This document shows, one piece after another, positions 3,167-47,184 of a stretch of DNA of 64,000 bases (its first letter is position 1; every line of letters starts with the position of its first letter). The DNA lies in contig CAVTWJ010000018.1 of assembly GCA_963738405.1 (NCBI GenBank), positions 1 to 64,000 on the forward strand, read 5' to 3'. The notes under the pieces were generated by a model that worked only from the letters and a program-made list of their open reading frames with translations, was not told where the DNA came from and did no database searches. A program made the position numbers and the translations under genes. This stretch comes from a candidate division FCPU426 bacterium. Lineage in GTDB: Bacteria; Oederibacteriota; Muellerivitia; Muellerivitales; Muellerivitaceae.

Positions 3167-4319
3167 TCAATTTCTGTCTATTGCGGCGCGTATGGTGGCG
3201 TCAACCTTAGCTGCCGCATCTTCCTGCATCCCGGGCAGGACGTGGGCTATAGAGATCGAGTGTTACGCCACGGTCGAATGCCCGAGGCGTTCTTGCGCGA
3301 CCTTCGGGTGTATACCGTTTGAGAGAAGATGGGTGGCGTGAGTGTGTCTGAGGTCATGAAATCGGATGCGGGGCACATCGGTCGCCTTTGCAAGGATACG
3401 GACGAACTCATGAGTTAAGGCTATTCGGCTGCAAAGGGCACCCGTCCTCTCGAGCGACAATATAGGATTGATCGGTCATCCCGACGCCTACCCTCAAAAG
3501 CTCTTCTGCTTGACAGACGCAGTGTCGCCGCAGCTCCTCGACGACCAGGGACGGGAGAGCAACCGTTCGAGCCCGACCGTTCTTCGTCTCCTTCAATCGA
3601 GTGCCCTTTGTTGTCTGTTCCGTGCTTTCTGCCACCGAAAGCTGCCCGCGAGAAAGATCGACGGAACGCCATCGCAAGGCGGTGATTTCTCCACGCCGGA
3701 GACCACACAGAACAGCCAATAGAACCGGCACGAATATTCGTGTGCTACGAAAATGGGAGAGCAAGCGGGCTGTTTCATGGGGGTCGAGCGCCTTCATCTT
3801 TGTACGCTCGACCTTCGGAGGATCGACGCTATCGACAGGACTGTGCAACAGCGTCCTCCAGCGCACGGCGGTTGCCAGGGCCTGCTTCAAAACGCGATGC
3901 ATGTGATGCACAGTCCGTGACGAGAGGCCTCCCGACCCGTCGCGGCGCCCTGATTTGAGCGCCTTGGCGTAGGCGGTTGCTATCTGGTCCGGGCGCAACT
4001 TCGTCAGAATTGTTTGGCCAAGTAGTGGAACAATGTTTTTACGGGCGATTTCTTGATAGCGTTCGAGGGTGCGCGGTGCGACGCGGGGCTCGATCTGGCC
4101 AAGCCACTTTTCGAGGAATTCTGCGACGGTCACCTTGGAGGGTTCCAGGTAGGCGCCTTGCATAAACTCTGTGATGAGGCGAGAGCATTGGTTTTGCGCC
4201 TCTCGCTTGGTCCCGCGAAATGAATGCCATTTCCGCTTCCGTTTCCCTGTGGCCGGATCGCGCACATCAAGAACGATGGCCCAATGGCCCGGCGAGCGCT
4301 CGCGAATATGGCCCTTCAT
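3167..4319 (-). pseudogene. Tyrosine recombinase (phage integrase), frameshifted near 3420, 3268 and 3245
   Basis: GLRRGEI in ORF 3408..4319; RFHDLRHTHAT...RLGHST in ORF 3263..3460; TLDLYS / HVLPGMQEDAA in further frames to TGA at 3167. Confidence 0.9.
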
Positions 4320-4957: not shown

Positions 4958-5065
4958 TCGCCGCCCCTAGCCCGATTTGGTACGTTTTCTCGTTTTATAC
5001 CGTGACTTCGTGGACAAGGCTAGGAAAATATGCAAATTCTCGTCAACAAAGGAACGAGCGGGCAA

Positions 5066-5277
5066 ATGGTGAAAACACGAAAGAAATTCTCAACCAGCCA
5101 ACATGCTCCGTTGAGGAACTTGGAAGGGTTTTTAAGCTTTCGAAGAATCCAGCCTACGAGGCCGTGAAGCGCGGTGATTTCCCATCGATCCGCGTTGGGG
5201 GTCGCATTCGCATCCCAACTGCCCCGCTTCGCCAGATGCTTGGTCTCGCATCATCTGACAACGCCTCTTCGTCTTAA
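5066..5277 (+). CDS. Excisionase-like HTH DNA-binding protein (start uncertain, frameshifted)
   Basis: SVEELGRVFKLSKNPAYEAVKRGDFPSIRVGGRIRIP fits the HTH_17/Xis pattern; divergent from the integrase. Confidence 0.75.
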
Positions 5278-7798: not shown

Positions 7799-8869
7799 TT
7801 AATGAATCTTCGGGGTAAAGCCGGCGGGGTTTTCGCTGACCTGGCTTTTCAGGAACTGGCGCATGGTATCCAGGTAAAGGGCAGTGGAAACCCCCATGGG
7901 CAAAACAAAGAACACGAACCTAAACAGCAGGGCCGCCACCATGGTTTGTTCAAACCCGACCCCCAAGAGGCTGAACACAAAGGCCAGGGCCGATTCGCTG
8001 ACCCCCAACCCGGCGGGGATAGGGTTGATGGTGGAGGTTAAAAAGAAAACCGTAAAGCCCACCATCAAAAGCCCCAAAGGCAGTTCCACCCCCACGGCAT
8101 TGAAGCAAAAATAAAGCGTCAGGGCCGTGAAGCACCAATCCATGCAGACCCAAAAGAGCACCACCAACAGCTGGATCCAGCCCTTGTGAAAGAACCGGAT
8201 GGTGGCATCCAGGTTTTCCCTTATTTCCGCTAGTCTTTTGTTGGTCGTCTTGCGGCGAAAGATGACATGGCCGATCCAGTTCGCGGTTTTGACGGCCAGC
8301 TTGAAGAACCACCGCCGGAACCCGCCGTGGAAAAAAACCATAAGCATCAAAGCCACCAAGGCCCCCAACCCCACCATGAATCCCAGGACCACCCCTTCGT
8401 TAGCGCCGCCCAAGAATTCTGGATGCTGCCTCAAATAGATCAGCCCCCCGAAGCTGACCCCCGCCAAAACCAGGTTAAAGATCATGTTCTGCGCGAAGGA
8501 CAGGGGAATGGTGGTGGAATAGGGAACCTTGTGCTGTTTTAAAAGGAAAGACCGGATGGCCACGCCCGCCCAACCGCCGGAGGAAAGGATGAAATTGATG
8601 GTGGCCGAAATGAACATGATGGGAAAAAACTGGGTGAAGGGGATTTTATAGGGCGTCAGCTCGAACAAGCCGTTGAAGGAAAGCGTGAAGGCCAGGTAGG
8701 CGATGGCGGTGCAAAGAAGCGCGAAGAGCATGAACTGGATATGGAGATGATGAAAGGTCTCGGCCAATTTAGGCAGGTCGCTCTTGAGGGCGGTGAAAAC
8801 CCCCAAAATCATGATGCCCACCACGAAAAGGGAAACCACGACCAAGGCTTTCTTGTTGGTTTGGCCCAT
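7799..8869 (-). CDS. Lysylphosphatidylglycerol synthase TM-domain (UPF0104 flippase-like) protein
   Basis: Polytopic membrane protein, PIPAGLGVSE and AALLFRFVFF motifs; ATG 8869 preferred. Confidence 0.85.
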   Translation of the reverse strand: MGQTNKKALVVVSLFVVGIMILGVFTALKSDLPKLAETFHHLHIQFMLFALLCTAIAYLAFTLSFNGLFELTPYKIPFTQFFPIMFISATINFILSSGGWAGVAIRSFLLKQHKVPYSTTIPLSFAQNMIFNLVLAGVSFGGLIYLRQHPEFLGGANEGVVLGFMVGLGALVALMLMVFFHGGFRRWFFKLAVKTANWIGHVIFRRKTTNKRLAEIRENLDATIRFFHKGWIQLLVVLFWVCMDWCFTALTLYFCFNAVGVELPLGLLMVGFTVFFLTSTINPIPAGLGVSESALAFVFSLLGVGFEQTMVAALLFRFVFFVLPMGVSTALYLDTMRQFLKSQVSENPAGFTPKIH

Positions 8870-8905
8870 CCCGCGCTCCCGGAAATAGAAATTCGTAATC
8901 AAAAT

Positions 8906-8933
8906 AAAAAAGCCCTGAGGCGGCCAGGGCTTT
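8906..8933 (-). terminator. Intrinsic terminator after the gyrA-kinase operon
   Basis: AGCCCTG/CAGGGCT stem followed by a T-run on the minus strand. Confidence 0.65.
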
Positions 8934-8959: not shown

Positions 8960-11900
8960 CTATTCGATCAGTTCCCCGTCGCTTTCCTTGCTCAGGTCGG
9001 TGGCCATGGGCTTGTTCGCATCCAAGCCTCCGGGGGGAACGCCGGGAGGGGGACCCGCGGGCTTGGGAGCTGGTTTAGGTTCATCACCGGTCTTGACGGA
9101 ATCCACATTATCCAAATCAAACACCCCGCTGGGGGGTGCGGTGGGTTTCAAGGAAGTGGGAACGACCTTGGGCGGAATGGGCGCCCCGGGAGGAGGCATC
9201 GGCAATCCTGGAGGCCTGGGGGCTCCCATAGAGGGCGGAGTCATAGGCGTCCCAGGAGGTGGCATGGGGGTACCAGGCGGTTTCGGAGCTCCTAAGGAGG
9301 GCGGAGCGATAGGAGCGACCGGCGGTTTTGGGGCCGCGGAGGGCATCGCCCCTAAAGATGGAGCGGCAGGGGGACGAACGGGAGCGCCTGCTGTTGGCGC
9401 ACCAGGAACTGGAGGCGTCGCGGGTTTGGTTCCGAGTAGGGCATCCAAAGCGCCGGGTGCCCCGAGGGAAATCGGCGGCTTGGGCGCGGCGGGAGGAACG
9501 GCGCCCGCAACAGGCCCCGCGGGAGAAGCAGGCGCTTTTTTATCCAAGAGCGCGTCCAAAAGGCCGGGCGCGGCGGCGGGCGGCTTTACACCGGGAACGC
9601 CAGGGGCGGGAGAAGGCGGAATCCTAATGCCCAAAGCGGGCCCGCCTAGCGGGGGAGCCCCTGGCTTGGGGGGTAGGCCCGGGGCCCCAGGAGCGGAAGC
9701 CGCCCCGGGAATTCCCGGCGCGGCGGGCCTTAAGGAAGCGGCTGGTGCGACAGGGGGAACCCTGCCGGCGAGAAGAGAATCAAGTACACCCGAACCCGCG
9801 GCGGCGGGTTTGGCCCCGGCGGGCGTTAAGCCGGGAGCCGCCGGCCTTGGGGCGCCTGTGGGCATGGGGCCCGGAGCGGGCGAGGGAGGAACGGGTTTCA
9901 CCGCGACGGGCGAGGGAGTTTTAACGGCTTGGGCCGAGGCGGCGGCAGCGGCGGCGGTCGCGGCGGCGGCGACCTCGCTGGGCTTTTTGTATTTCGTCGG
10001 GAAGGTCAGGATGAGCCGGGTTCCAGGATCGCTCTTTTCAGCCACCGCTCCCCCGCCATGGCCCGCCAGGATGGTTTTAACCAGCGCGAACTTAAGGCCC
10101 GTGCCCGCCAGCTGGGTCGAGGCGGTGTGTTTGGGATCGTAAAACTCGTCGTAGAGGTGGGGCAGGCTTTCGGTTTTGACGTTCAGGCCCGGGTCTTCCA
10201 CCGTGACCTTCACGTTCTCGCCTACCGCTTCCACCTTAATGGGAATGATGGAACTCCGAGGCGCGTCCTTGATAATTTGAAGGTACAAAATATTCCAAAG
10301 CTGGTTGAAGCGGCGGCGCACAATGGGAACCTTGGGAAGGTTGGGCTGGGGCTCAATCCTTAACTTGATGGCTTTCACGTCCGCCTGGGCTTGGAAGTTG
10401 AAGGCCAACCCTTCGATTTCAGAACCCAGATTGACGTCTTCCCTCTTGGCGTCTTCCGCCTCGATTTCCACCTGGTAGATATCCAAAAGATCATTGATGA
10501 ATTTTTCCAGGCGCGCGGAACGGTTGATGACCATGCCCAAAAATTCCTGCTGTTTCTCGCTGATGCCGCCCTGGACCGTTCCGAGGGCCGAGGAGACATA
10601 GCCCTTGATGATGCCCAGTGTAGTCTTGAGCTCGTCGGCCATGGTGCGGATGGCCGCGGCGCGGACCGAGGAAACCTGGATGGCGGAAGCGGCGGAAACG
10701 GCGTTGAGGAGCTTGGCGTCCATTTCTTTGAGCTTGGCTTCCGTCTGCTGGAGCTTGGTCGCGACGTCGGACTGCGCCCTTTCGGCGGTGGCCAGCTGGC
10801 CCTTGAGGAGGGCGGTGTCGTTTTTGGACTGCTCGGTTTGGTTTCTTAAGCCTTCCGACATGGCTTTCAAGGCGTCCAGTTCTTTGAGCTTATCGTTTAA
10901 GACCTGGCTTTTTTCGGCCAATTCGCTCTTGGCGCCCTGGGCGGTCTGTTGGGCGGAAGATACCATCGCCGTGCTTTCGCGCGCCTTTTCATCCATTTGG
11001 GAGCGCATCTGCCTTACGGAGTCATTTTTTTCCTGCTCAATCTTTTGTTTTTCCTGTTCCAAATTTTGAATCAGCATGGCGGCGGCCTGCACCATCTGGC
11101 CCACTTCGTCCTTGCCGAAAGCCTTGAGCGTTTCAGGTGTGATGGAGCCTTCGCCCTGCGCCGCCTTCAAAACTACCGCGCTGGCCCTGCGCACCGGCGC
11201 CAAAATGCCGCTCAAGAAGAGGGAGCCCATGAGCCAAACCCAGGCCCAGAGGATCACGATGGCCAAGCCAAAGGGCGTGTAAAACCACTTGAGGATCAAC
11301 TGGGGAAGATCGGCCAAGGTGGGCTTGGGTTCGGGCTTAGCCGCCGGGGAGGGAGGAATGACAGTGCTATAGGGAACCTGGGTCACCACGCCGAATTTCC
11401 CGAAGCCTAAGGGCGCGTAAACCACCGCCCCGACACCGGGTTCTAAGGAGGAGCCGGCCTGTTGGTTGTTAAGGTCGGTGGAAACCTTCGACAGCCAAGG
11501 CGCGTTGCCGGGGTTGAAAGTTTCGGAAAGCTTGGAGGGATCGGAATGAAAAAAGTAACGGCCCGAAGAAGCGTCGAGGATGAAATAAACCCCGCTCTTG
11601 GTGTCTTTGGGGTCGAGAGGCGGAAAAAAATGGCCCAGATTGAAAACCGCCACAGCCACCGATTTGTCGGTCAAGGGCTGAGCGAAGAGGAAGGCGGGGT
11701 AGTTTAGGCGCTGGGTGTAAAACTGATAGGTCTGTCCAGGCTTAGCCTGCAATCTTTCTTGGATGGTCTTGAATTCGTCAGAAGAAGCGTATTGGCCGTC
11801 CGCCAAGGGAGGGGTGGCCGGAAGGTTTTTTAAAATCTTGCCGGTAGGGGAGACCACGAAAAGTCCCTGGACCCCGGGATGGGACTCCACGAAATTGGAA

Positions 11901-12154
11901 AGATCCGCGTCCCCATGGACGGACGTCAGGGTGGGGATATCCCCCACCGTTTTCTTGATGCTGCTGAAAAGGGACGAGGCGATCGACCCCACTTGTCCCT
12001 CTAATAAACTAACGGGGGCGTAATTGACTTCCTGGACGGCCGGGGCGGAGACCGGCGGCGCCTCGGTGAATTTCATCCAACCATAAACACCGGCCAGTAT
12101 CAGGACGGGCAGGAAGCCGACGAAAAAAATCGCCCCAAAATATTTACCCTTCAC
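8960..12154 (-). CDS. Membrane sensor histidine-kinase-like protein (Cache-like, HAMP, coiled coil, degenerate DHp/CA, Pro-rich tail)
   Basis: Two TM helices, HAMP (KDEVGQM), DHp-like MADELKTTLGIIKGY...FINDLLD, CA-like boxes; overlaps the gyrA end. Confidence 0.85.
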   Translation of the reverse strand: MKGKYFGAIFFVGFLPVLILAGVYGWMKFTEAPPVSAPAVQEVNYAPVSLLEGQVGSIASSLFSSIKKTVGDIPTLTSVHGDADLSNFVESHPGVQGLFVVSPTGKILKNLPATPPLADGQYASSDEFKTIQERLQAKPGQTYQFYTQRLNYPAFLFAQPLTDKSVAVAVFNLGHFFPPLDPKDTKSGVYFILDASSGRYFFHSDPSKLSETFNPGNAPWLSKVSTDLNNQQAGSSLEPGVGAVVYAPLGFGKFGVVTQVPYSTVIPPSPAAKPEPKPTLADLPQLILKWFYTPFGLAIVILWAWVWLMGSLFLSGILAPVRRASAVVLKAAQGEGSITPETLKAFGKDEVGQMVQAAAMLIQNLEQEKQKIEQEKNDSVRQMRSQMDEKARESTAMVSSAQQTAQGAKSELAEKSQVLNDKLKELDALKAMSEGLRNQTEQSKNDTALLKGQLATAERAQSDVATKLQQTEAKLKEMDAKLLNAVSAASAIQVSSVRAAAIRTMADELKTTLGIIKGYVSSALGTVQGGISEKQQEFLGMVINRSARLEKFINDLLDIYQVEIEAEDAKREDVNLGSEIEGLAFNFQAQADVKAIKLRIEPQPNLPKVPIVRRRFNQLWNILYLQIIKDAPRSSIIPIKVEAVGENVKVTVEDPGLNVKTESLPHLYDEFYDPKHTASTQLAGTGLKFALVKTILAGHGGGAVAEKSDPGTRLILTFPTKYKKPSEVAAAATAAAAAASAQAVKTPSPVAVKPVPPSPAPGPMPTGAPRPAAPGLTPAGAKPAAAGSGVLDSLLAGRVPPVAPAASLRPAAPGIPGAASAPGAPGLPPKPGAPPLGGPALGIRIPPSPAPGVPGVKPPAAAPGLLDALLDKKAPASPAGPVAGAVPPAAPKPPISLGAPGALDALLGTKPATPPVPGAPTAGAPVRPPAAPSLGAMPSAAPKPPVAPIAPPSLGAPKPPGTPMPPPGTPMTPPSMGAPRPPGLPMPPPGAPIPPKVVPTSLKPTAPPSGVFDLDNVDSVKTGDEPKPAPKPAGPPPGVPPGGLDANKPMATDLSKESDGELIE

Positions 12155-14711
12155 TGGCTTCCCCTCCGTCCACTTCTTTCGGCACGTTCACTACCGCCAC
12201 AAGCCGATCATCGTCGGCCATTTTAATCAAACGAACCCCCTGGGCCAACCTTCCCGTGGATTTGATTTCCTTCACCCGCTGGCGGATGACCTTGCCCGAG
12301 GCCGTCATGACGATGATCTCATCTTGATCGCCCACGGAGGCGATAGAGACCGCCAAACCGTTCTTCGAGGTTGTCTTGATGTTGAGGATACCCTTGCCGC
12401 CTCTCCCCTGCCGGCGGTAGGCGGAGTAATTGGTGCGTTTGCCAAAGCCTTTTTCGGTGGCGGTGAGGAGCGACATGCCCTCTTGGACCACTTCCATGCC
12501 AATCACCCTGTCCTTATTGCCCAAGCGCATCCCGCGGACACCCTTGCCGGCCCGGCCCACTTCCCGGACCATTTTCTCGGCGAAGCGGATCGACAGGCCC
12601 GAACGGGTGGCTAAAAAGATATCCCTCTTGCCGTCGGTGATTTCGGCGGAAACAAGCACGTCGCCCTTGTCCAAAGTGATGGCGATGATGCCGCCGGCCC
12701 TGGGCTTATCGAAGGCCGAGAGGCTGGTGTTTTTGATCAGACCGTTGGCCGTGGCCATGAGGATGCTGAACTTTTCGTTGAATTCCTTGACGGGTTTGAC
12801 CGCCGAGATTTTTTCTTCCTCGCCGAGTTTTAGGACGTTGGCCAGGGCCGTGCCTCGGGCATAGCGGGAGGCTTCGGGAATCTCATAGACCTTGAGCCAA
12901 TGGGCCTTACCGAAATTAGTGAAAATGAGAAGGTAGTCGTGCGACGAGGCGGTGTACATGCGCTCGACGAAATCTTCTTCCTTGATGCCCGAGCCGGTGA
13001 CGCCCTTCCCTCCCCTGCGCTGCTTCTGGTAGGTATCAATCGGCAGGCGCTTGATGTAACCCCCGTGGGAGAGGGTGATGACGCATTGCTCATCCTCGAT
13101 CAGGTCCTCAATTTTCAAATCCTCGGCCTTGCCGATAATTTCGGAGCGGCGGGGATCGGCATACTTGGTTTTGATCTCGGTCAATTCGTCCTTGATGACC
13201 TGCCAGAGTTTCTTTTCGGAGGAAAGAATCCCCTTCAGGATTTCGATGGTCTTTAACAGTTCCCGGTATTCATCTTCGATCTTCTTGATTTCTAGGTTCG
13301 TCAGCTGACGCAGCTGCATTTCCAAAATGGCCTGGGCCTGAATGGGAGAGAGGCTGAAATTAGCGATGAGGGCGGTTTTGGCGTCTTCGGTGCTTTTGGA
13401 AGCCCGGATGGTCTTGATGACCTTATCCAAATTGTCGAGAGCGATGCGAAGACCCTCGAGGATATGGGCCCGCTTCTCGGCCTTGTCCAAATCGAATTTG
13501 GTTCGGCGGATGACCACATCTTTGCGGTGCTCCAGGAAATGGTGGAGCATGCCCTTGAGGTTCAAAACCCTCGGCTGGCCGTTAACAAGCGCCAACATGA
13601 TGATGCCGAAAGAAGTGCGAAGAGACGTTTGTTGGAAGAGGTTGTTGAGAACAACCTGCGCGTTCATGTTTTTAGAAACTTCAATCACAACCCGCATACC
13701 GTCGCGGTCGGACTCGTCCCGAAGGTCGGTGATACCTTCCATCTTCTTGTCGCGCACCAGTTCGGCGATCTTTTCGATCAGTTGAGCTTTGTTCACCTGG
13801 AAAGGGATCTCGGTGATGATGATGCGCTCGCGGTCTTTTTTGTCGGTCTCAATGCCGGCCTTGGCTTGCATGCGCACACTGCCGCGCCCCGTGTTGTAGG
13901 CTTCGACGATGCCTTCCCGGCCGAGGATGAAACCCCCGGTTGGGAAATCAGGTCCCTTGATGAAATGAACCAGTTCCTTGACGGTGGCCTGGGGGTTGTC
14001 GATCAAGTGCATCAACCCTTCGATGACTTCTCCCAAATTATGCGGGGGAACATTGGTGGCCATGCCGACCGCGATACCTTGGGCGCCGTTGACGAGGAAG
14101 TTGGGGAAGGCGCAGGGCAGGACGAGAGGTTCTTCCCGGGTGCCGTCGTAGTTAGGAACGAAATCGACCGTGTTTTTGTCGATGTCTTTTAAAAGTTCCT
14201 CAGCCAAGGGGGACATGCGAACTTCGGTGTAACGTTCGGCGGCCGGAGGGTCGCCGTCGACAGAGCCAAAGTTTCCCTGTCCGTCGATGAGGGGATAGCG
14301 CATGGAAAAATCCTGCGCCAAGCGGACCATGGTGTCGTAAACCGAGGCAGTGCCGTGGGGATGGTAATTGCCCGTGACATCGCCCGTGACCTTGGCCGAT
14401 TTGCGGTAGGGCTTGCGGGAAGTCAGGGAAAGATCGTGCATGCCCATGAAAATGCGGCGGTGGACAGGTTTCAAGCCGTCGCGCACATCCGGCAGGGCTC
14501 TTCCTACGATCACGCTCATGGCGTAATCGAGATAGGAATCCTTCATCTCGTCTTCGATATCGGTCGAAACGATGTTGCCGCGGTTCTCATCGCCTCCGTC
14601 ACCGCCTAGGGCCGCCGTTTCACCCTTGGGGGGCGGAGGAGCGCCTTCCCCGTTTTCTGCTGGGTTCTCGGGGGATTCGGGTGTTAATTTTTTCTTTTTC
14701 AACCGGGCCAT
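12144..14711 (-). CDS. gyrA: DNA gyrase subunit A
   Basis: RALPDVRDGLKPVHRR, YHPHG, AAERYTE, GyrA-box QRRGGKG. Confidence 0.99.
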   Translation of the reverse strand: MARLKKKKLTPESPENPAENGEGAPPPPKGETAALGGDGGDENRGNIVSTDIEDEMKDSYLDYAMSVIVGRALPDVRDGLKPVHRRIFMGMHDLSLTSRKPYRKSAKVTGDVTGNYHPHGTASVYDTMVRLAQDFSMRYPLIDGQGNFGSVDGDPPAAERYTEVRMSPLAEELLKDIDKNTVDFVPNYDGTREEPLVLPCAFPNFLVNGAQGIAVGMATNVPPHNLGEVIEGLMHLIDNPQATVKELVHFIKGPDFPTGGFILGREGIVEAYNTGRGSVRMQAKAGIETDKKDRERIIITEIPFQVNKAQLIEKIAELVRDKKMEGITDLRDESDRDGMRVVIEVSKNMNAQVVLNNLFQQTSLRTSFGIIMLALVNGQPRVLNLKGMLHHFLEHRKDVVIRRTKFDLDKAEKRAHILEGLRIALDNLDKVIKTIRASKSTEDAKTALIANFSLSPIQAQAILEMQLRQLTNLEIKKIEDEYRELLKTIEILKGILSSEKKLWQVIKDELTEIKTKYADPRRSEIIGKAEDLKIEDLIEDEQCVITLSHGGYIKRLPIDTYQKQRRGGKGVTGSGIKEEDFVERMYTASSHDYLLIFTNFGKAHWLKVYEIPEASRYARGTALANVLKLGEEEKISAVKPVKEFNEKFSILMATANGLIKNTSLSAFDKPRAGGIIAITLDKGDVLVSAEITDGKRDIFLATRSGLSIRFAEKMVREVGRAGKGVRGMRLGNKDRVIGMEVVQEGMSLLTATEKGFGKRTNYSAYRRQGRGGKGILNIKTTSKNGLAVSIASVGDQDEIIVMTASGKVIRQRVKEIKSTGRLAQGVRLIKMADDDRLVAVVNVPKEVDGGEASEG

Positions 14712-14740: not shown

Positions 14741-17713
<2,973 letters not shown>

Positions 17714-17717
<4 letters not shown>

Positions 17718-18817
17718 GAAACGGACTCTACCCTTCCCTCTTCCACGCGAAAAACCCGGGCGTGGGACCCGGCGTTTAAAAAATCATTTCGGGAGGTTCC
17801 CGTGAGGAAAGCCTGCCCGCCCTGCTGAAGCCGGTTCAAGAAAAAGGCCCTTCGCTTTTCATCCAGCTCGGCCATCACATCGTCGAAAAGGATCAAGGGC
17901 TCCTTTCGGCAACCCTCGGCCAGAATCGATAATTGCGCCAACTTGAGCGCCAAGGCGCCGGTGCGCTGCTGGCCCTGACTTCCATATTTTCGCAACGGCT
18001 TGCCGTTGACCCACAGCCCCAGATCATCCCGGTGGGGTCCGGTGATGGTTGCCGAGCGGGCCATTTCCTCCCGCCGGGATTTTTTCAGCGCGTCTAAAAT
18101 TTGCGCGGGCAGGTCTCCCGCTTTTTCATCAGAAATAATCTGGGGCTCATAACGCACCTCAAATTGTTCTGCCCCCCCCGTTAGATCCCTTAGAGCGGCC
18201 CGGGCAAAATCGCCGAGCCTCTGTGTGACTTCCCGGCGCCGGATCATCAAGGAGGCTCCATGTTGGGCCAGGGGCAAATCCCAAACTAAAAGTTGGCTTT
18301 CCAGGCCCGGCCCTTTTTGCTTTAAAAGACTATTGCGCTGCTTCAAAGCCCTTTCATAGGCTTGAAGATGCGTTAAGTACCCCAAGTCCATCTGCAAAAT
18401 CGTGACATCCAAATATTTCCGCCTGAGCAAGGGACTTCCCTTAATCAGGAACAAATCGTCGGGTGAAAAAACCACCGCCGGAAGCCTGCCGAGAAGGGAA
18501 GAGAGCTTTTTTTCTTTTTTCCCGTTCACAAAAAGGGCCTTGGGCTTTCGTCGGCGAAACTCAAGCCTCAGAGTTTCCGGCCCATCTTCCCGTCTTATTT
18601 TTCCCTCCACCGCCCCTTCTTCTTGATCGAAGCGGATCATTTCTTCATCGGTCGCTGAGCGCAGGGAGCGAGAAGTGGAAAGACAATAAAGGGCTTCTAA
18701 AATATTTGTTTTTCCCTGGGCGTTGGATCCGATTAAGAGATTGAGTTGAGGGTCGAAATCCACCTCCAAGGCTTGATAGGACCGAAATTGCGAAAGCCGC
18801 AAAGACTCAACATGCAC
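17714..18817 (-). CDS. recF: DNA replication/repair protein RecF
   Basis: GSNAQGKTNILEA, GPHRDDL, GSQGQQR, LFDDVMAELD. Confidence 0.98.
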
Positions 18818-22025: not shown

Positions 22026-23054
22026 ATGAATGAGATTCTTCTATGTGAAAGCAAAAAGATGACCTATCAACCCCTTTCTGCCACCTTCTCAGCAACACAG
22101 GACAATATGCCAGAGGTAGAGAATTTTATTCATCGGCTTCTTGTTCCTGTGGATCCAGTAACCCCCTCAACCCTTTGCGAGGACGTCTATCATCTTTTTG
22201 CAAAGGACAAGTCGCTTCAATCGGTGGCTGTGGTTCAAAATAAAGAACCAGTTGGTCTGGTAAACCGGTTTTATTTAATTGACCGATTCTCTCGAAGATT
22301 TTTTAGGGAACTTTATGAGCGCAAACCCATCTCCAAAATCATGGAATCCTCTCCACTTCTTGTTGAAGCTTCGGTCAGCCTTGATGACCTCAGTTCCATT
22401 ATTGCGGATGAGGAAGAAAAATATCTTTATGAGGGTTTCATTATCACTTTAGGAGGGAAATACCTTGGCATTGGAACGGGCCATCGATTGATGAAGGAAA
22501 TTACGGCTCGAAAACAAGCGCAACTTTACCATTTGGCCCATCACGATACTTTAACCGGACTTCCAAACCGTCTTCTTTTTTATGATCGGCTTCGCCAAGC
22601 CATTCATAACGCTCAGCGCAGTAATTTACATTTGGCGGTTCTATTCATCGACTTGGATTACTTCAAACATGTGAATGATACGCTTGGGCATCCAACCGGC
22701 GACACCTTGCTTCAACTCATCGCTCAAAGATTAGAAAACAGTTTACGGGAAGGAGATACCGTAGCCCGCCAAGGAGGGGATGAATTCACCATTATCTTGA
22801 CCCACGTGGCAAAGCAAACAGACGTTGAAATAGTTTCTCAAAAAATTCTTGAATCCATTTCAATGCCTCTAACCCTTGCAGGTCAGGAACTAAAAATTAC
22901 CTGTAGTATTGGATCAAGCTTTTTTCCAACCGACGGGGCCCTTATGAATATCCTGATTCAAAAAGCCGATACAGCGGTGTATCACGCAAAACAGCTAAGA
23001 AATACTTTTAGGGCTTACCATTCGACCATGAAAGCTCATCACCTAGGCGATTAG
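22026..23054 (+). CDS. CBS-domain diguanylate cyclase
   Basis: N-terminal CBS-like pair; HDTLTGLPNR, RxxD I-site (REGD), intact GGDEF. Confidence 0.92.
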   Translation: MNEILLCESKKMTYQPLSATFSATQDNMPEVENFIHRLLVPVDPVTPSTLCEDVYHLFAKDKSLQSVAVVQNKEPVGLVNRFYLIDRFSRRFFRELYERKPISKIMESSPLLVEASVSLDDLSSIIADEEEKYLYEGFIITLGGKYLGIGTGHRLMKEITARKQAQLYHLAHHDTLTGLPNRLLFYDRLRQAIHNAQRSNLHLAVLFIDLDYFKHVNDTLGHPTGDTLLQLIAQRLENSLREGDTVARQGGDEFTIILTHVAKQTDVEIVSQKILESISMPLTLAGQELKITCSIGSSFFPTDGALMNILIQKADTAVYHAKQLRNTFRAYHSTMKAHHLGD

Positions 23055-28090: not shown

Positions 28091-28312
28091 TTAGTATTTC
28101 TTTCCTTTTTTAAATAATCGTAAAGGTTTAGACCTACCCAAGACACGCACAAAGATAAAGATGGAGGTCTACCTGTAGCTTTAAATCAAAGCCGGGAAAA
28201 GTGAGATATATTATCTTAGGCTCCTCAAACCCGTCAATGGAACGCTTGTTTTGTACCTTTCTCTATCTTGTGTTCCTAATAGATGAATCTACTGCCGGTG
28301 GTAAATGAAATC

Positions 28313-28852
28313 ATGACATCTAAAATTCAACTCATTCTTGGCGGAATGCGCTCGGGTAAATCACGATATGCTCTGACTCAGGGGGACGAACATTTTTACG
28401 CGTCCAAAACATTCCTGGCGACCGCGACGCCGTTGGACTTGGAGATGAAAACCCGCATAGCCCGCCACCAAATGGAAAGGGGCTCCGAATGGACCACCCT
28501 CGAGGAACCCTATTACCTTCTAAAAACTCTAAAAGAACAAATGACTCAATCTCAAAGATTGGTGGTATTGGATTGTTCAACCTTGTGGATTTCAAATCTT
28601 CTTTGTGGAATCGGGGGGCCGACGCTTTCATACTCCAAGACCCAAACGGAGATTGAAAATCTGATGGATACAGTACCGAGTCTTCAAGGGGCTTTGAGAA
28701 TAGTTTCCAATGAGGTGGGGCTTGGAATTATTTCCGATAACGAATTAAGCCGCCAATTTTGCGATTTACAAGGACGGTTCAATCAAGCGGCCGCAAAAAT
28801 AGCTCAACAAGTTATCTTCATGACCGCAGGAATTCCTCTAAAAATTAAATAG
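28313..28852 (+). CDS. cobU: Adenosylcobinamide kinase/guanylyltransferase
   Basis: GGMRSGKS, EMKTRIARHQ..R, VSNEVGLG; alternative start 28283. Confidence 0.95.
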   Translation: MTSKIQLILGGMRSGKSRYALTQGDEHFYASKTFLATATPLDLEMKTRIARHQMERGSEWTTLEEPYYLLKTLKEQMTQSQRLVVLDCSTLWISNLLCGIGGPTLSYSKTQTEIENLMDTVPSLQGALRIVSNEVGLGIISDNELSRQFCDLQGRFNQAAAKIAQQVIFMTAGIPLKIK

Positions 28853-28935
28853 ACCCATTTTGTTCTTTTGTCCTTCATTCTCTTTTCATGCCTGTGGTAA
28901 AACGGAACGGTAGATTCACTTCAAAAGGGGAAATC

Positions 28936-30042
28936 ATGAACTTGCCCAAGAACCTTCTTTCCATCGCGCCTCTAAATCAAAAGGCGATCCGATTGGCTGA
29001 AAAGAGACAGTCACAATTGACGAAACCCGCCGGAAGCCTGGGCCGGCTGGAAGAAATCGCCATAAAAGTTGCTGGTATTCAAGGACTTGAAATTCCACGG
29101 CTTGGCAAAAAAAGAATCATACTTTGCGCCGCAGACCATGGGGTCGCTTCAGAAGGCGTTTCTGCTTTTCCCTCCGCAGTCACCCCCATGATGGTATTGA
29201 ACTTCCTGAAAGGTGGGGCTGCCATCAACGCCCTGGCGAAGCAAGCCGGCGCGGAGGTCCAAGTGGTGGATGCGGGGGTCGCAAGTGAACTTCCAAAATC
29301 TAAGGGGCTCCTTTCCCACAAGATCGCCCTGGGAACTAAAAATTTTAAAGTCGAACCTGCGATGACCGAAAGCCAATGCACACAGGCCATTCAGCTCGGC
29401 TTAAAGCTTTCGCAACAGGCGAAGAAAGACAAGATTCATTGGGTCGTTTTGGGCGAGATGGGCATTGGCAACACCACTTCCGCTGCGGCCCTCATGGCGG
29501 CATTGCTTCCTTGCGCCGTAGAAGATGTCACTGGATTTGGCACCGGCATCGACCGTACTCAGTGGCTGATAAAATGCCGTGTCATTCAAGAAGGTTTACA
29601 ACGGCATCAAGCGGAAGCTTCTAAACCCTTGGAAGCCTTGCGTTGCTTAGGCGGGCTTGAAATCGCGGCCCTCACCGGCGTCGTTCTTGGGTGTGCCAAA
29701 AATCGGATTCCGGTGGTGGTAGATGGATTTATTACCTCCGCCGCTTTTTTGGTAGCCTACCGGTTGAATCCAAGGGTTTTGGATTTCGCTTTTTTCTCTC
29801 ACCGATCTGAAGAACCAGGCCATTCAAAATTTTTGGACATGCTGGGAGAAAAACCTCTTTTAAATTTGAAGATGCGTCTGGGTGAGGGAACAGGTGGGGC
29901 TTTAGCCTTGAATATTCTCGAATCAGCCTTAAGAACCCATGCCGAAATGGCCACTTTTGAAGCCGCCAAGGTGCCAACCAAAATCAAAAAGAGAAAAGAT
30001 CCTCTTTCCCAAACCGCCCGAAGGAAAAAATCAAAGGATTAA
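28936..30042 (+). CDS. cobT: Nicotinate-nucleotide-DMB phosphoribosyltransferase
   Basis: LTKPAGSLGRLE, GEMGIGNTT, MRLGEGTG. Confidence 0.98.
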   Translation: MNLPKNLLSIAPLNQKAIRLAEKRQSQLTKPAGSLGRLEEIAIKVAGIQGLEIPRLGKKRIILCAADHGVASEGVSAFPSAVTPMMVLNFLKGGAAINALAKQAGAEVQVVDAGVASELPKSKGLLSHKIALGTKNFKVEPAMTESQCTQAIQLGLKLSQQAKKDKIHWVVLGEMGIGNTTSAAALMAALLPCAVEDVTGFGTGIDRTQWLIKCRVIQEGLQRHQAEASKPLEALRCLGGLEIAALTGVVLGCAKNRIPVVVDGFITSAAFLVAYRLNPRVLDFAFFSHRSEEPGHSKFLDMLGEKPLLNLKMRLGEGTGGALALNILESALRTHAEMATFEAAKVPTKIKKRKDPLSQTARRKKSKD

Positions 30043-30085
30043 CCCATTTCTTGACGTTTAGGGTTTGAAAGCAGGCAACAGAATA

Positions 30086-30811
30086 ATGAAAGCCTTTTGG
30101 ATCGCCCTCACCACCCTTTCCTGCTTTCCCTCCCCCCTCCTAAAATTACAGAAATCCGATTTTAAAAACTCACCCGCTTATTACCCCTTGATTGGCGGAA
30201 TTCTGGGGTCCCTTCTTGGTTTGGTTATATTGCTCCCATTATCGCAATCGCTTCAAACTCTCCTGATTTTGCTGCTTTGGGTGGTAATAACTCTTGGTTT
30301 CCATTTGGACGGCTTGGCCGATTGCCTAGACGGCTGGCTTGGCGGTAAAAACCCTTCCGACCGACGACGGATCATGAAAGGTTCCACTCTCGGGTCTTAT
30401 GGTGTCACCGGCATCACTTTAGCTCTGCTATCCAAATTCGTTTTGGTAAATCACCTTCTACTTCAACCCGATTCCTGGAAGTGGCTTGTTTCCATTCCCA
30501 CAGCCGCACGTTTCGGGGCGGCCTTTTCTTGCCGATTTGCTTCCTCGCCCAAAGGGGTTAATGGTATAGGAAAAAAGGTGTTGGGAACTTCCAATACCGC
30601 ATTGTTTGTATCGCTGGTTATCTCTCTTATGATTCTTGTTTCTTATCTTCAGTGGAATGCTTTTTTGCTTTTGGGAGTAAGTCTTTTAACCTCAATCCTA
30701 ATCCAAGCCATTTCCAAAAATAAAATCGGAGGACTTACGGGGGATGGATTGGGAGCTACTATCGAGGTAGCAGAAATTCTTGGGCTATGGGTTTCCAACC
30801 TTCATTTTTAA
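30086..30811 (+). CDS. cobS: Cobalamin synthase
   Basis: FHLDGLADCLDG, GGLTGDGLGA. Confidence 0.95.
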   Translation: MKAFWIALTTLSCFPSPLLKLQKSDFKNSPAYYPLIGGILGSLLGLVILLPLSQSLQTLLILLLWVVITLGFHLDGLADCLDGWLGGKNPSDRRRIMKGSTLGSYGVTGITLALLSKFVLVNHLLLQPDSWKWLVSIPTAARFGAAFSCRFASSPKGVNGIGKKVLGTSNTALFVSLVISLMILVSYLQWNAFLLLGVSLLTSILIQAISKNKIGGLTGDGLGATIEVAEILGLWVSNLHF

Positions 30812-30827
30812 ATACAGGTGCTGAATT

Positions 30828-31568
30828 TTGAAAACTCCCGCTATCCTCCTTATCACTCATGGAAGCCGGGAATCCTCTGCCAATCGTCGATTTCATTACT
30901 TGGCGCGCCGATACGCCCAATACCACCCAACCTGGATCATCCGGTCAGCCTTCTTAGAAAATGGAAAACCTTCCATCTTTGAGGGGTTGGAAAATCTTTC
31001 CTTTCGAGCCAATGAAATCGACATTCTTCCACTTTTTCTTTTTTCGGCAAACCACTTGAAGAGGGATATCCCTGAAATTCTGGATCAGTTCCGATCTCGT
31101 CATCCCAAAGTCATTTTATGTCTCGCCAAAGAGCTTGGGCCAGATCCGGTGCTGACTCAAATCGCACTTCAAAGAATAAAGCCGCAATTAAAACATCCTG
31201 GTTCAAGCCTTGTTTTGATATTAGGACGCGGCACTAGGGATCCGGAAGCCTTGGAGGATTTCCAAAAACAAATAGAAAATTTTTCAAAGCTTCGACGCTT
31301 CAAAAAGGTATTGCCTTGTTTCTTCGAAGCCGCTCAACCGTCGTTGAAAAAAAGTCTCGAAGAAGCCTGCCGTTACGACCCTAAAAGGATCGTGGTGCTT
31401 CCTTATCTTTTGTTCAATGGTTCGTGGAGAGGTGAAGTGAAAAGAAAATTAGACAATTTTCGTTATCAACATCCCGCCGTTGATATATGGCTGGCCCCTC
31501 CTTTGGGGTTTCATCCAAGTCTTATGAAACTTTTAGATGAAAGATGGCAGGCCATTCCCCGAAGATAG
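30828..31568 (+). CDS. cbiX: Sirohydrochlorin chelatase, CbiX/SirB family
   Basis: HGSR, AFLE..PS, PLFLFSANHLKRDIP, duplicated domain. Confidence 0.85.
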   Translation: MKTPAILLITHGSRESSANRRFHYLARRYAQYHPTWIIRSAFLENGKPSIFEGLENLSFRANEIDILPLFLFSANHLKRDIPEILDQFRSRHPKVILCLAKELGPDPVLTQIALQRIKPQLKHPGSSLVLILGRGTRDPEALEDFQKQIENFSKLRRFKKVLPCFFEAAQPSLKKSLEEACRYDPKRIVVLPYLLFNGSWRGEVKRKLDNFRYQHPAVDIWLAPPLGFHPSLMKLLDERWQAIPRR

Positions 31569-33630: not shown

Positions 33631-33740
33631 GAGCCCTACCCCCGAGGCCGAAGGCTTTAGGGGAAGGAGCAGGGAGAAAAACCTGAAAAAAGGGCTTAAC
33701 TCGCCGCTTCTTATTCCCGAAGAAGCATCCGAAAATTTCT

Positions 33741-33880
33741 CAAGGCCGGTCTCCTGACTTGGGGCAATTCACTCCTTGAACCTTCCCATCCCGTCTAAGG
33801 ACAGTGACTCAAAGAAAAACTTCGCCCCTCACAGTGGCGGGTCCGCGCCGGATTCGCACCGGCTTCCCGAGCACCTTAAG
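33741..33880 (-). promoter_or_regulatory. Cobalamin riboswitch 1 (btuB)
   Basis: GGGAAGCCGGTGCGAATCCGGCGCGGACCCGCCACTGT...CACTG...GGGAAGG...AAGTCAGGAGACCGGCC. Confidence 0.95.
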
Positions 33881-33889
33881 TTAAATGAT

Positions 33890-33918
33890 TTAATACGCTC
33901 CTTTATTTACACTGTCAA
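33890..33918 (-). promoter_or_regulatory. Sigma70-type promoter for riboswitch 1/btuB
   Basis: TTGACA-17 bp-TATTAA. Confidence 0.65.
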
Positions 33919-37339: not shown

Positions 37340-37479
37340 GCTTTCCCCAAGCTTCATCTTTCATTTGCAAAGCTGAGGGAGGGAAGACTTCTTTGGATGG
37401 ATTAGGTCGAAAAGAAGCACAAAGCCCATTCCTCGAGGCTTGCTTTCCATGCCGAACCACAAAAATTCGGCGTTTCATC

Positions 37480-37613
37480 CAAGGCCGGTATCCTGACTCG
37501 GGATTTGCTTTTCGGGTCTTCCCGTCTTATCGACAGTGACCTTCGAAAAAAATCGTGCATCCCTTACAGTGGCGGGTCCGCACCGGATTTGCACCGGTTT
37601 CCCGAACACCTTG
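37480..37613 (-). promoter_or_regulatory. Cobalamin riboswitch 2 (btuD-btuC-bluB-btuF)
   Basis: GGGAAACCGGTGCAAATCCGGTGCGGACCCGCCACTGT...CACTG...GGGAAG...GAGTCAGGATACCGGCC. Confidence 0.95.
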
Positions 37614-37622
37614 AACGGGGCT

Positions 37623-37651
37623 ATTAAAGAGGGAGCCTAGAAGGCTGTCAA
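37623..37651 (-). promoter_or_regulatory. Sigma70-type promoter for riboswitch 2
   Basis: TTGACA-17 bp-TTTAAT. Confidence 0.65.
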
Positions 37652-37792
37652 GGATGCCTTTTTTGATGCTCCGGGGGATAATGAAACATAGGCAAAATGA
37701 AGATGACTCTCCTCATAAAATATTTTTTGATTGGTATTTATAAGATTCTTTTCAGGTTTAGATGAAGTTTTCAAGAATCAAAAGGAGAGGCT

Positions 37793-40409: not shown

Positions 40410-40640
40410 AATTTGTGAATTGATGTGAATAAGCGGTGAATAAGATTTAAGCCACACGGGGTTAAGTTCAAACACGGATCAACAGTTTGAGTCTTAATTT
40501 CGTAATGAAAAATACTTTTGAATTGCAAAAGTTGTCCACAGCTCTATTCACAATTGTGAATAACTGAAAAACCAACAAAATGGCCTAAATTAGCCATTAA
40601 TTTCGTGTAAAGTACGGTTGGGGATAGTACGGGGATAACC
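40410..40640. promoter_or_regulatory. DnaA-box cluster upstream of dnaA
   Basis: TGTGAATAA 40424 and 40555, GGTGAATAA 40435, TTGTCCACA 40532, CTATTCACA 40544. Confidence 0.85.
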
Positions 40641-40711
40641 CAATTTCCGAAAGACAAAACGGGGCTTTTTAAAGGGATATCTGAGTTTTTTAGCGTTTGG
40701 GAGGCTTGTGG

Positions 40712-42097
40712 ATGAGTGTTACTGCAGATCTTTGGGATCGTTGCCTCGAAAACCTAAAAAAAGACTTAAATCAACAGAGTTTTGAAACCTGGTTTAAGGT
40801 CACTAAAGCTTCGGTTCGCGAAAAAACACTTCATGTTCAGGTTCCCAATGAATTTTTCAGGGACTGGATACGCGATCATTATCAGCCTCAGATTCAAAAG
40901 GCACTTAACCTCGTTCATCCAGAGCAATTGGAAATTCAATTTGAGATTGAAAACTCTGGTTTCTCTACCAATACAAATTCAACCCAAATCACACCAACAT
41001 TAAACATGGAAGTCGCTGAAAAGCCCCGAAACAACCCCTTAAATCCGAAAATTTCTAATGATTCTGAATTTACGCTGAATTCAAAGTTTAACTTTGAAAG
41101 CTTCGTCGTAGGTAATAGCAATCGATTCTCACACGCCGCCTGCCTAGCAGTTGCGGAATCACCCGCGAGATCCTATAACCCCTTGTTTATCTATGGCGGG
41201 GTCGGTCTTGGAAAAACTCACCTTCTTCAAGCTATTGGAAACTTTGTAATGACTCAAAACCCCCTCTCCCGAGTTCTTTACTTATCAAGCGAAAAGTTCA
41301 TGAACGACTTTATTCAAGCGATTCAATCGGGCAGACAACAGGATTTTCGTAATAAATACCGCACCGTTGACGTGCTTTTAATTGACGATATTCAGTTCTG
41401 GGAAGGAAAAGAAGCCACTCAAGAAGAGTTTTTTCATACTTTCAACGTCTTGTACGAGGCCCAAAAACAAATAGTCGCCACCTCCGATAGCCATCCGAAA
41501 GAAATTAAACTGGAAGAAAGGCTTAAGAACCGTTTTGAAATGGGACTCATAACGGATATTCAAGAACCGGATCTAGAAACGCGGATTGCCATCCTCAGAA
41601 AAAAAGCTGAAAACGAAGGAATTCTTGTTCCTAACGAGGTTACAACCTTCATTGCCAATCACGCTAAGGCGAATATCCGTGAACTTGAGGGCGCTATGCT
41701 ACGTGTCATCGCTTTCGCGTCTCTTACACGGCAAGAAGTGTCACTCAACCTGGCGAAGGAAATCCTAAAGGATACGTTCCCCAACGAGGATAAAAGGGTT
41801 TCCGTGGAAGATATTCAAAGAATTGTTGCGGATCGATATCACTGCCGATTTTCGGACATGAAATCTCGAAAGAGAACCAAGCAGATTGCTTTTCCAAGAC
41901 AAATCGCCATGTATCTCTCCCGAGAATTAACTCCCCATTCCCTCAGTGAAATTGGTGCAGCTTTCGGCGGTAAAGACCACACCACAATCATTCACGCCTA
42001 TGAAAAAATTGAAGATCTTCTTGTTTCGGATATCGCGCTCTTAGCAGAAGTAAATAGCCTTAAAAAACAACTTACCGACGGAAACTTCTCTTCCTAA
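40712..42097 (+). CDS. dnaA: Chromosomal replication initiator
   Basis: YNPLFIYGGVGLGKTHL, LLIDDIQ, NIRELEGA, GGKDHTT; GGAGG RBS. Confidence 0.99.
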   Translation: MSVTADLWDRCLENLKKDLNQQSFETWFKVTKASVREKTLHVQVPNEFFRDWIRDHYQPQIQKALNLVHPEQLEIQFEIENSGFSTNTNSTQITPTLNMEVAEKPRNNPLNPKISNDSEFTLNSKFNFESFVVGNSNRFSHAACLAVAESPARSYNPLFIYGGVGLGKTHLLQAIGNFVMTQNPLSRVLYLSSEKFMNDFIQAIQSGRQQDFRNKYRTVDVLLIDDIQFWEGKEATQEEFFHTFNVLYEAQKQIVATSDSHPKEIKLEERLKNRFEMGLITDIQEPDLETRIAILRKKAENEGILVPNEVTTFIANHAKANIRELEGAMLRVIAFASLTRQEVSLNLAKEILKDTFPNEDKRVSVEDIQRIVADRYHCRFSDMKSRKRTKQIAFPRQIAMYLSRELTPHSLSEIGAAFGGKDHTTIIHAYEKIEDLLVSDIALLAEVNSLKKQLTDGNFSS

Positions 42098-47028: not shown

Positions 47029-47184
47029 GGGCCGACAAATGGCTTTTTATTGTGCATATTCCTCCAAAAATTGACGGGAATCCTAAAGTCCCTCCGATGA
47101 GAGGTGAAACGCCCCTCCTTGTAAATTAGTTCAAGGATGGTTATTTTATCGTTCACAACCGGTTACAACCTGGGAAAGGTTTTT

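Follow-up and report, generated by a model that had tools for sequence, protein, structure and literature searches.

What can a receptor built on the histidine-kinase plan do once the histidine itself has been lost, and does the position of its gene beside gyrA bear on the answer? Both questions are raised by a 64,000-nucleotide (nt) stretch of DNA from a candidate division FCPU426 bacterium (GenBank contig CAVTWJ010000018.1, positions 1 to 64,000; hereafter the window), in which the gene directly downstream of gyrA encodes a membrane receptor with the dimerisation and nucleotide-binding domains of a HisKA-type kinase. An acidic residue occupies the site of the phospho-acceptor His, and the Asn that binds Mg is absent. 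The same substitutions recur throughout a family of homologs that is maintained by purifying selection, and gyrA adjoins the gene wherever the adjoining DNA is available. A receptor pseudokinase that turns ligand binding into altered protein contacts is the account developed below, and it is held with even confidence.

Domain architecture of the receptor

An intact open reading frame (ORF) of 1064 amino acids (aa) had been claimed in an earlier sequence-only reading of this DNA, and the translation bears it out. The following features were assigned to the gene, all on the minus strand:

8960..12154 (-): His-less histidine-kinase-like membrane receptor, 1064 aa, GTG start (ORF list and translation)
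12161..12167 (-): Shine-Dalgarno-like GGAGGGG within the 3' end of gyrA (read from the upstream sequence)
12086..12142 (-): predicted transmembrane (TM) segment 1, residues ~5-23 (Kyte-Doolittle 19-residue window, peak 2.3)
11489..11914 (-): divergent extracytoplasmic dCache_1-like sensor core, residues 81-222 (Pfam dCache_1)
11213..11269 (-): predicted TM segment 2, residues ~296-314 (hydropathy peak 2.13)
11084..11206 (-): weak HAMP-like linker, residues 317-357 (Pfam HAMP, E=0.088, 13.6 bits, below the cutoff and a lead only)
10670..11083 (-): helical or coiled-coil stalk, residues ~358-495 (composition)
10460..10669 (-): DHp (HisKA) domain, residues 496-565, near-invariant in the family (Pfam HisKA)
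10634..10636 (-): codon GAC for Asp507, at the position of the phospho-acceptor His (PDB alignment)
9995..10312 (-): CA (HATPase_c) domain, residues 615-720 (Pfam HATPase_c, 43.7 bits)
8963..9979 (-): Pro/Ala/Gly-rich cytoplasmic tail, presumably disordered, residues 726-1064 (composition)
8909..8933 (-): terminator-like hairpin with a 10-bp stem and a T-rich tail, 27 nt past the receptor stop (consensus scan, no proof of termination)

The order of elements is thus TM, divergent dCache, TM, HAMP, coiled coil, DHp, CA and a Pro/Ala-rich tail of ~340 aa. The GTG start is preceded at 8 nt (from core end to start codon) by a GGAGG core, and the start call is supported by the N-terminal MK[GS]KY, which is kept across homologs.

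Between the two TM segments lies a sensor loop of ~270 residues (~30-290). The sensor of the window protein matched Pfam dCache_1 at 28.6-32.3 bits, under the curated cutoff of 45, and the same model was matched at E<=0.1 by all 11 family members tested, with a best value of 3.7e-9. A search of PDB structures with the sensor-domain profile returned nothing below E=0.35. The stalk of ~140 residues contains no Pro and only three Gly, is rich in E, K, Q and A, gave weak coiled-coil-type matches, and carries the conserved motif DKLKELDALKGMSEGLRNQ. The DHp dimerisation domain is present, as the HisKA model scored 28.6 bits over residues 501-561 against a cutoff of 26.9. An ESM Atlas search returned generic kinases only. 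A reading as a defence-system component was rejected, PADLOC having given just weak coiled-coil-type matches (JetC and LmuB, E ~1e-4).

Loss of catalytic residues across the family

The family was delimited with a word-indexed search and comprises 86 relatives and the window's own entry, with scores of 440 to 1620 bits and the next match at 76 bits. When the receptor was compared with PDB chains by phmmer, its H-box MADELKTTL, from residue 505, aligned to SHELRTPL of HK853 (2c2a, 3dge, 4jas), which places Asp507 at the site of the phospho-acceptor His and agrees with the sequence-only reading of codon 10634-10636. This column holds Glu in 77 rows of the 87-row family alignment, Asp in 10 and His in none, so the change noticed in a single protein is conserved, in an acidic class made up mostly of Glu. 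Glu and Asp were exchanged at least seven times in an 84-row FastTree phylogeny from which the column had been excluded, and the replacement was always acidic; hence the site evolves yet remains acidic. No conserved substitute His was found elsewhere in the DHp domain among the 87 members, only four of which have any His in columns 490-570, at non-conserved positions.

The N-box reads LYLQIIK from residue 623, without the Asn at the Mg-binding position, as had been proposed. That position fell on Gln626 in two of three alignments (7zp0; canonical kinases) and on Leu625 in the third (HK853), and the N-box Asn column is Gln626 in 86/86 rows that have a residue there. The G1 and G2 boxes were likewise correctly read as DPGLN (from residue 654) and GTGLKF (from residue 684). 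Across the family, G1 takes the form D-P-G-L-x, in which the Asp and first Gly are invariant and the second Gly is lost, its position being variable, and G2 takes the form G-T-G-L-K-[FLM], in which the first three residues are invariant. The adenine-binding Asp654, Gly656, Lys629 and G684-T685-G686 are invariant where present, as is a family-specific lid pair, Lys675-His676. The spacing from the F-box FY to the G2 GTG equals that of HK853 in the PDB alignment. The phosphatase motif of HisKA kinases, E/D at the residue after the His site (H+1) and T/N at H+4, is also present, with Glu508 in 87/87 members and Thr (67) or Asn (20) at position 511.

Of the elements that characterize canonical HisKA kinases, the receptor therefore has the DHp domain and lacks both the phospho-acceptor His and the N-box Asn. 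Judged on these residues, conventional His-autophosphorylating kinase activity cannot occur in the receptor, and with an acidic residue at the His site the receptor must signal in some way that is not the ordinary phosphate relay. It may still act as a phosphatase or bind nucleotide. The sequence-only reading had called the protein catalytically dead; this holds for the loss of His and Asn, but is stronger than the data allow, as the E-x-x-T/N motif, the adenine-binding Asp and G2 are invariant or nearly so. No description of this gyrase-linked family was found in the listed titles and opening lines of abstracts of open-access papers and preprints on pseudo-histidine kinases, gyrA-linked kinases or Firestonebacteria.

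Conserved motifs in the cytoplasmic tail

The tail of the window protein is 28% Pro, 20% Ala and 11% Gly, has ...DGELIE at its end and carries G-x-L-D-[SA]-L-L motifs; DNA tandem repeats are not its source. Tails reach 150 aa or more in 81 family members; of these, 68 carry one or more motifs of the G-x-L-D-[SA]-L-[LI] type (LDxLL-type), and 72 terminate in [DE][LI][LI][EDQ]. The strict motif occurred once elsewhere in the six-frame translations of the window (37638-37658, -), outside called ORFs. On this pattern of conservation, the motifs may be docking motifs on a flexible tether. A beta-clamp-binding reading was rejected, since on visual inspection the motifs did not match the beta-clamp-binding pattern, which we take to be QL[SD]LF, and the C-terminus ends in Glu.

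The opposite strand of the tail-coding region carries an antisense ORF of 384 aa (8988-10142, +), which is most likely a shadow frame of GC-rich codons and no gene.

Purifying selection on the receptor gene

The receptor is under strong constraint in every domain. In comparison with the closest related locus (L001), the ratio of nonsynonymous to synonymous substitution (dN/dS) was 0.11 overall, 0.055 in the CA domain, 0.063 in the sensor, 0.18 in the tail and 0 in the DHp domain, where 70 codons showed zero nonsynonymous changes, though with dS near saturation these ratios are rough. Purifying selection, which the sequence-only reading had left for homologs to decide, is therefore evident. The run K534-D555 of the DHp domain does not vary among 78 aligned sequences, for which mean column identity is 34%. 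An additional constraint on the DHp domain at the nucleotide level was considered and rejected: the proportion of synonymous differences was lower there against L001, but the dip was inconsistent across eight pairs.

Because the site is acidic in 87/87 members, the Gln at the Asn column is invariant and the overall dN/dS is 0.11, the His substitution is, on this comparative evidence, an old feature held by selection and no lesion.

A wider group of His-less relatives

When 1.84 billion cluster representatives were searched exhaustively with a profile, 58 matches fell below 1e-30, and under the family proper came a second tier at 120-180 bits. Proteins of the second tier also lack the His, while canonical kinases of similar or lower score have SHELRTPL, NAxKF, DTGxGI and GTGLGL. 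After two more searches, 103 further relatives were tabulated:

His site: His 0; Thr 38, Ser 30, Glu 12, Asp 8, Gly 6, Ala 5, other 4
Asn column: Gln 82, His 15, Asn 3 (Gln or His 97)
G1 Asp: kept in 101
H+4: Ala 58, Gly 39

In a profile-profile comparison with hhalign, the family matched the further relatives along ~600 columns that take in the sensor (probability 100, E 4.5e-63), and the DHp helix-2 signature QQEFLG.VIN.SARLE..INDL is common to both. The receptor shares the traits of the wider group, namely full-length homology, absence of the His, Q or H at the Asn column, the G1 Asp and the helix-2 signature. The further relatives are membrane proteins of 750-1400 aa on the same chassis, with tails often shorter than those of the window family; these low-complexity tails end in acidic-hydrophobic peptides such as LDDLNxMLG and EDLDKLLxDIE. 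Several come from candidate phyla; the few sources that were named included candidate division FCPU426, Candidatus Goldiibacteriota and a Spirochaetia metagenome-assembled genome.

In a quick IQ-TREE phylogeny of 75 core domains, 51 His-less rows were split from 24 canonical kinases with an SH-aLRT value of 99, and the window family was monophyletic, with a support of 100 and a long stem. This topology fits one old loss of the His, given a root and an outgroup of our choosing. The His site differs among clades: all nine sampled rows of one clade have Thr, and another clade has Ser, Ala or Gly. The window family is set apart from the further relatives by E/D at the His site with T/N at H+4, as opposed to T, S, E, D, G or A by clade with Ala or Gly at H+4. 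No description of the wider group was found in the literature searched.

Linkage of the receptor gene with gyrA

The genes flanking the receptor gene in the window are:

12144..14711 (-): gyrA, its stop overlapping the receptor start by 11 bp (Pfam DNA_topoisoIV and 6 DNA_gyraseA_C repeats)
14741..17356 (-): gyrB (Pfam DNA_gyraseB, Toprim, HATPase_c and DNA_gyraseB_C)
17385..17717 (-): dciA (Pfam DciA, 35.7 bits)
17714..18817 (-): recF (Pfam SMC_N and AAA matches)
7799-8902 (-): flippase-like LPG_synthase_TM membrane protein, the next gene downstream of the receptor (Pfam)

Both the gene order recF-dciA-gyrB-gyrA-receptor and the 11-bp overlap with gyrA had been claimed from the sequence alone, and Pfam matches and coordinates support them. 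Related loci were collected in one scan of species-representative genomes, which yielded 15, of which L015 was dropped and L011 begins inside the receptor gene. In all 13 related loci having upstream DNA, the adjoining upstream gene is gyrA, in the same orientation as the receptor gene; the linkage is thus not unique to the window genome. The full recF-dciA-gyrB-gyrA-receptor block was seen in five loci, with recF conserved upstream in L001, L006, L008, L012 and L014, and mnmG-rsmG was found further upstream in the four loci examined. Downstream, an LPG_synthase_TM homolog follows the receptor gene in five loci (L001, L004, L008, L011 and L012) and not in five others (L005, L006, L009, L010 and L014), where the ten loci counted are those with such a match or with roughly 7-10 kb of downstream DNA.

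Twelve gyrA/receptor junctions, including that of the window, were readable: six have the 11-bp overlap, one has a 4-bp overlap, and five have a gap of 91-181 bp. No terminator-like sites were found in the two gaps scanned. Taken with the order of the genes, this spacing suggests that the receptor would be co-transcribed with gyrase from the recF-dciA-gyrB-gyrA unit.

Whether the adjacency has functional meaning is a separate matter. The neighbourhood is probably a matter of inherited gene order, with the receptor serving an unrelated envelope-sensing pathway and merely sharing the transcript. The loci represent one lineage with a GyrA identity of 76-92%, and common descent, as opposed to independent retention, may account for their 13/13 agreement; conservation also extends to the whole mnmG-rsmG-recF-dciA-gyrB-gyrA block, five junctions are separated by 91-181 bp, and the downstream gene often encodes a flippase-like membrane protein (5/10 loci). 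In contrast, the adjacency has persisted while the receptor diverged to 44-58% identity in most loci (78% in L001, with L014 fragmented), and a stop/start overlap of 4 or 11 bp has been kept in 7/12 readable junctions over that range. A functional tie of the receptor to gyrase or DNA topology is possible though unlikely, because the 13 loci belong to one lineage in which the whole block is syntenic.

Three of the loci call for separate comment. A GyrA-receptor fusion in L002 was rejected, as the single frame of ~1.9 kaa is artefactual and its junction (L002 5767-5868) is a masked run of N. In L014 (3245-12198), several frames make up each of four genes, recF, gyrB, gyrA and that of the receptor; since the frameshifts affect every gene of the block, they point to assembly quality, with long-read errors suggested, rather than to decay or pseudogenes. 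L015 was rejected as a family member: it encodes an ordinary kinase (THELKSPL, NAIKY, GTGLGL) that was retrieved via a shared peptide pattern, and downstream of its kinase gene, in the same orientation, comes an ORF of 242 aa.

GyrA (14566-14711, -) and GyrB (17212-17356, -) of the window each bear a Lys/Pro/Ala-rich extension of ~45-50 residues before the first Pfam domain, of a composition like that of the receptor tail.

Proposed mechanism and alternative explanations

The receptor would be a two-pass membrane protein on a histidine-kinase chassis in which His phosphotransfer has been permanently lost. Ligand binding outside the cell would act through the stalk on the DHp-CA core, and the output would be changed protein-protein contacts with no phosphoryl relay. 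Two surfaces are candidates for these contacts. One is the near-invariant face of the DHp domain, the usual receiver-docking site in kinases, and the other is the ~340-aa tail, on which the G-x-L-D-x-L-L motifs and the C-terminal D/E-L-I/L-E could tether partners. The receptor would be made together with gyrase from the recF-dciA-gyrB-gyrA unit.

Several observations weigh against this account of a contact-switching pseudokinase, on which our confidence is evenly divided. The phosphatase motif is intact in every member, whereas PsmA, a His-less protein that acts by binding, is described as being without it (PMC12963549). The nucleotide pocket is largely kept, so the receptor may have a catalytic or nucleotide-sensing role. 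The His site of the wider group is not always acidic (Thr 38, Ser 30, Gly 6 and Ala 5 among 103), which makes negative charge dispensable for whatever the whole group shares. Finally, co-transcription is deduced from spacing and pattern scans, and the five loci with gaps of 91-181 bp could hold promoters in them.

The main rival is a phosphatase-only enzyme, which we regard as unlikely though deserving of serious weight. The receptor would dock a phosphorylated response regulator encoded elsewhere and hydrolyse its acyl-phosphate, with Thr or Asn at 511 positioning the water and the carboxylate at 507 acting as general base; with the His lost, neither kinase activity nor back-transfer would occur, and the receptor would be a signal-gated phosphate sink. 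In the H-E/D-x-x-T/N motif, the T/N is reported to be required for phosphatase activity only (PMC3510030). Position 508 is invariantly Glu and 511 is restricted to Thr and Asn in the family, while 97 of the 103 further relatives have Ala or Gly at H+4, which argues that T/N is kept under selection in the window family. The DHp helices on which a receiver would dock are near-invariant, and the family keeps its adenine-binding Asp and G2 loop. ADP is reported to stimulate the phosphatase reaction (PMC7005713). The same source assigns the general-base role in that reaction to the His, a role that a carboxylate could in principle assume, and according to a preprint the His contributes to HisKA phosphatase activity without being essential (10.1101/2025.06.23.661182). 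On the other side, the Mg-binding Asn is gone, a carboxylate near the phospho-Asp may repel it, and that preprint argues that HisKA domains without the His are, as a rule, unlikely to serve mainly as phosphatases. The receiver itself is also missing from the surroundings: the sequence-only reading had remarked on the absence of a nearby response regulator, and no Response_reg domain was found in the scanned ORFs of the window (the small ORFs 769-1020, 997-1269, 2375-2803 and 5002-5277 being left out) and no receiver domain in 62 flanking ORFs of eight related loci, although a distant orphan partner may exist.

A bolder version of the pseudokinase account is a long shot. It would have the His site rewired throughout the wider group, with Ser or Thr perhaps phosphorylated in some clades and the carboxylate of the window family serving as phospho-mimic or phosphatase base, and would have the receptor couple an extracytoplasmic cue directly to gyrase or replication-proximal machinery, with which it would be co-translated, via the DHp face and the tail. 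If true, the membrane would have an input to DNA supercoiling without an intervening transcription factor.

Also a long shot is a kinase with another acceptor, in which ATP would be held via Gln626, D654 and G2 and the phosphoryl group passed to the carboxylate at 507 or to Ser/Thr on the receptor itself or on a partner, in the manner of GHKL Ser kinases; the Ser/Thr of the sister clades would then be the phosphorylated site, and the E/D of the family a built-in phospho-mimic. A pattern of Ser/Thr in some proteins and acidic residues in others resembles the exchange of phosphosites with phospho-mimics, and here the site is Thr 38, Ser 30, Glu 12 and Asp 8 among 103 relatives, with one clade entirely Thr. 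The invariance of D654, G656, K629, G684-T685-G686 and the lid K675-H676 also agrees with ATP use. However, no member has the Mg-binding Asn, G1 is without its second Gly, and in 15/103 relatives the site is G, A, M, V, N or I. Moreover, the free exchange of Glu and Asp, whose side chains are of unequal length, speaks against precise acyl-phosphate chemistry.

A decaying relic, an ex-kinase gene drifting after the loss of function, could explain the missing His and N-box Asn but is dismissed by the intact 1064-aa frame, the 87 homologs with the same substitutions, the dN/dS of 0.11, the DHp domain free of nonsynonymous change and the invariant run K534-D555.

The family offers a clean natural experiment: it is large, its His site has stayed strictly acidic over at least seven switches, and its phosphatase motif has been kept where the sister clades lost theirs. 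It is suited to asking directly whether a carboxylate replaces the His in the phosphatase reaction or mimics phospho-His. The gene has adjoined gyrA throughout while its own sequence diverged to ~44% identity, and an envelope signal may possibly feed into DNA topology, though the gyrase link may be inherited gene order only. The host organisms are uncultured.

Distance from the likely replication origin and other genes of the window

The sequence-only reading had placed the operon at the origin. It does lie near the likely origin region, but at 22-31 kb from dnaA, with the receptor ORF at ~28 kb. The genes dnaA (40697-42097, +) and dnaN (42350-43585, +) are on the strand opposite to the receptor operon, and six DnaA-box-like sites at 40424-42258 flank them, out of 23 in the window against 10.05 expected. 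The segment 40152-42350, which has the lowest G+C content of the window (0.37-0.41), is the likely origin region.

Other features of the window are as follows:

44047-47028 (+): MrfA-like DEAD-box helicase of 993 aa, directly after dnaN; it includes a Zn-binding MZB domain and a fused 3'-5' exonuclease/RNase H-like domain at the C-terminus
47137-48396 (+): GAF-HD_5 (HD-GYP-like) protein, near the origin
22026-23054 (+): CBS-GGDEF cyclase between mnmE and mnmG, on the opposite strand to them
28283-31568 (+): cobalamin salvage genes CobU, CobT-like, CobS and CbiX
33727-33893 (-) and 37466-37628 (-): cobalamin riboswitches
3408-4319 (-): phage-integrase-like ORF with a SAM-like N-terminal domain and a partial catalytic domain, ~4.6 kb downstream of the receptor

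One of the two riboswitches precedes a TonB-dependent receptor, and the other an operon of ABC-ATPase, FecCD permease, nitroreductase and periplasmic-binding-protein genes. A GAF-HD_5 gene also occurs in L010 (8967-10178), ~0.8 kb downstream of the receptor gene. In the part of the window at 1-7.5 kb, around the phage-integrase-like ORF, several ORFs had no family matches.

Comparison with known systems

His-less kinase domains are rare, amounting to 722 of 76,471 HisKA domains (0.9%) in the survey reported in one preprint (10.1101/2025.06.23.661182), and few have been studied, mainly DivL, RocA and PsmA.

With canonical HisKA kinases such as HK853, EnvZ, WalK and PhoR, the receptor shares the order TM-sensor-TM-HAMP-DHp-CA, the E at H+1 and the T/N at H+4. 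It differs from them in having no His, no Mg-binding Asn, no second Gly in G1, no regulator nearby and a tail of ~340 aa. Its best PDB matches were 7zp0 (3e-17) and HK853 (7e-15), and the NCBIfam models PnpS, WalK and PhoR scored far under their cutoffs.

Plant subfamily-2 ethylene receptors are likewise membrane receptors with a degenerate His-kinase domain that lacks catalytic residues, and they signal via bound partners; Ser kinase activity has been reported for them. They differ from the receptor in being eukaryotic and in having another sensor domain, and are related to it by fold only.

RocA of group A Streptococcus resembles the receptor as a membrane-spanning, kinase-like protein without kinase function, and it is described as acting via contact with a genuine kinase, CovS (PMC7028121). 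In contrast to the receptor, RocA as described there still has a His, the dispensable H246, together with six TM segments and a CA domain that is degenerate, and it carries no Cache domain or tail.

PsmA of the Streptomyces polarisome, in which the His site is Glu in S. venezuelae and Asp in S. coelicolor, has degenerate ATP motifs and a very long disordered region, a linker of 696 aa, and is reported to act through protein binding, its partner being DivIVA (PMC12963549). According to that report, PsmA is cytoplasmic, has tandem PAS domains and a C-terminal receiver, varies between E, D, Q, V and Y at the site and is without D/E-x-x-T/N, whereas in the receptor family the site is strictly acidic (87/87), E-x-x-T/N is kept, and no PAS or receiver domain was matched.

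DivL of Caulobacter crescentus (PDB 4q20) likewise has a HisKA-type DHp-CA core with the phospho-acceptor His replaced. It is described as having neither kinase nor phosphatase activity while keeping dimerisation and receiver docking, and as signalling by binding DivK~P on the receiver-docking face rather than by phosphotransfer (PMC4211667). DivL differs in being alphaproteobacterial, with Tyr at the site, cytoplasmic PAS domains, no Pro-rich tail and a known partner (DivK~P/CckA); the receptor has Glu/Asp at the site and a Cache-like sensor with HAMP, and PAS was not matched. The match to 4q20 (E=1.4e-9) was weaker than that to HK853 (7.4e-15), and the receptor is thus no closer to DivL than ordinary kinases are. 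The cell-cycle or polarity scaffold suggested in the sequence-only reading rested on analogy with DivL, to which the receptor is related by fold alone, and nothing in the data points to such a role. The receptor falls outside the canonical kinase class, the DivL family and the PsmA family alike, and by analogy it would work most like DivL and PsmA.

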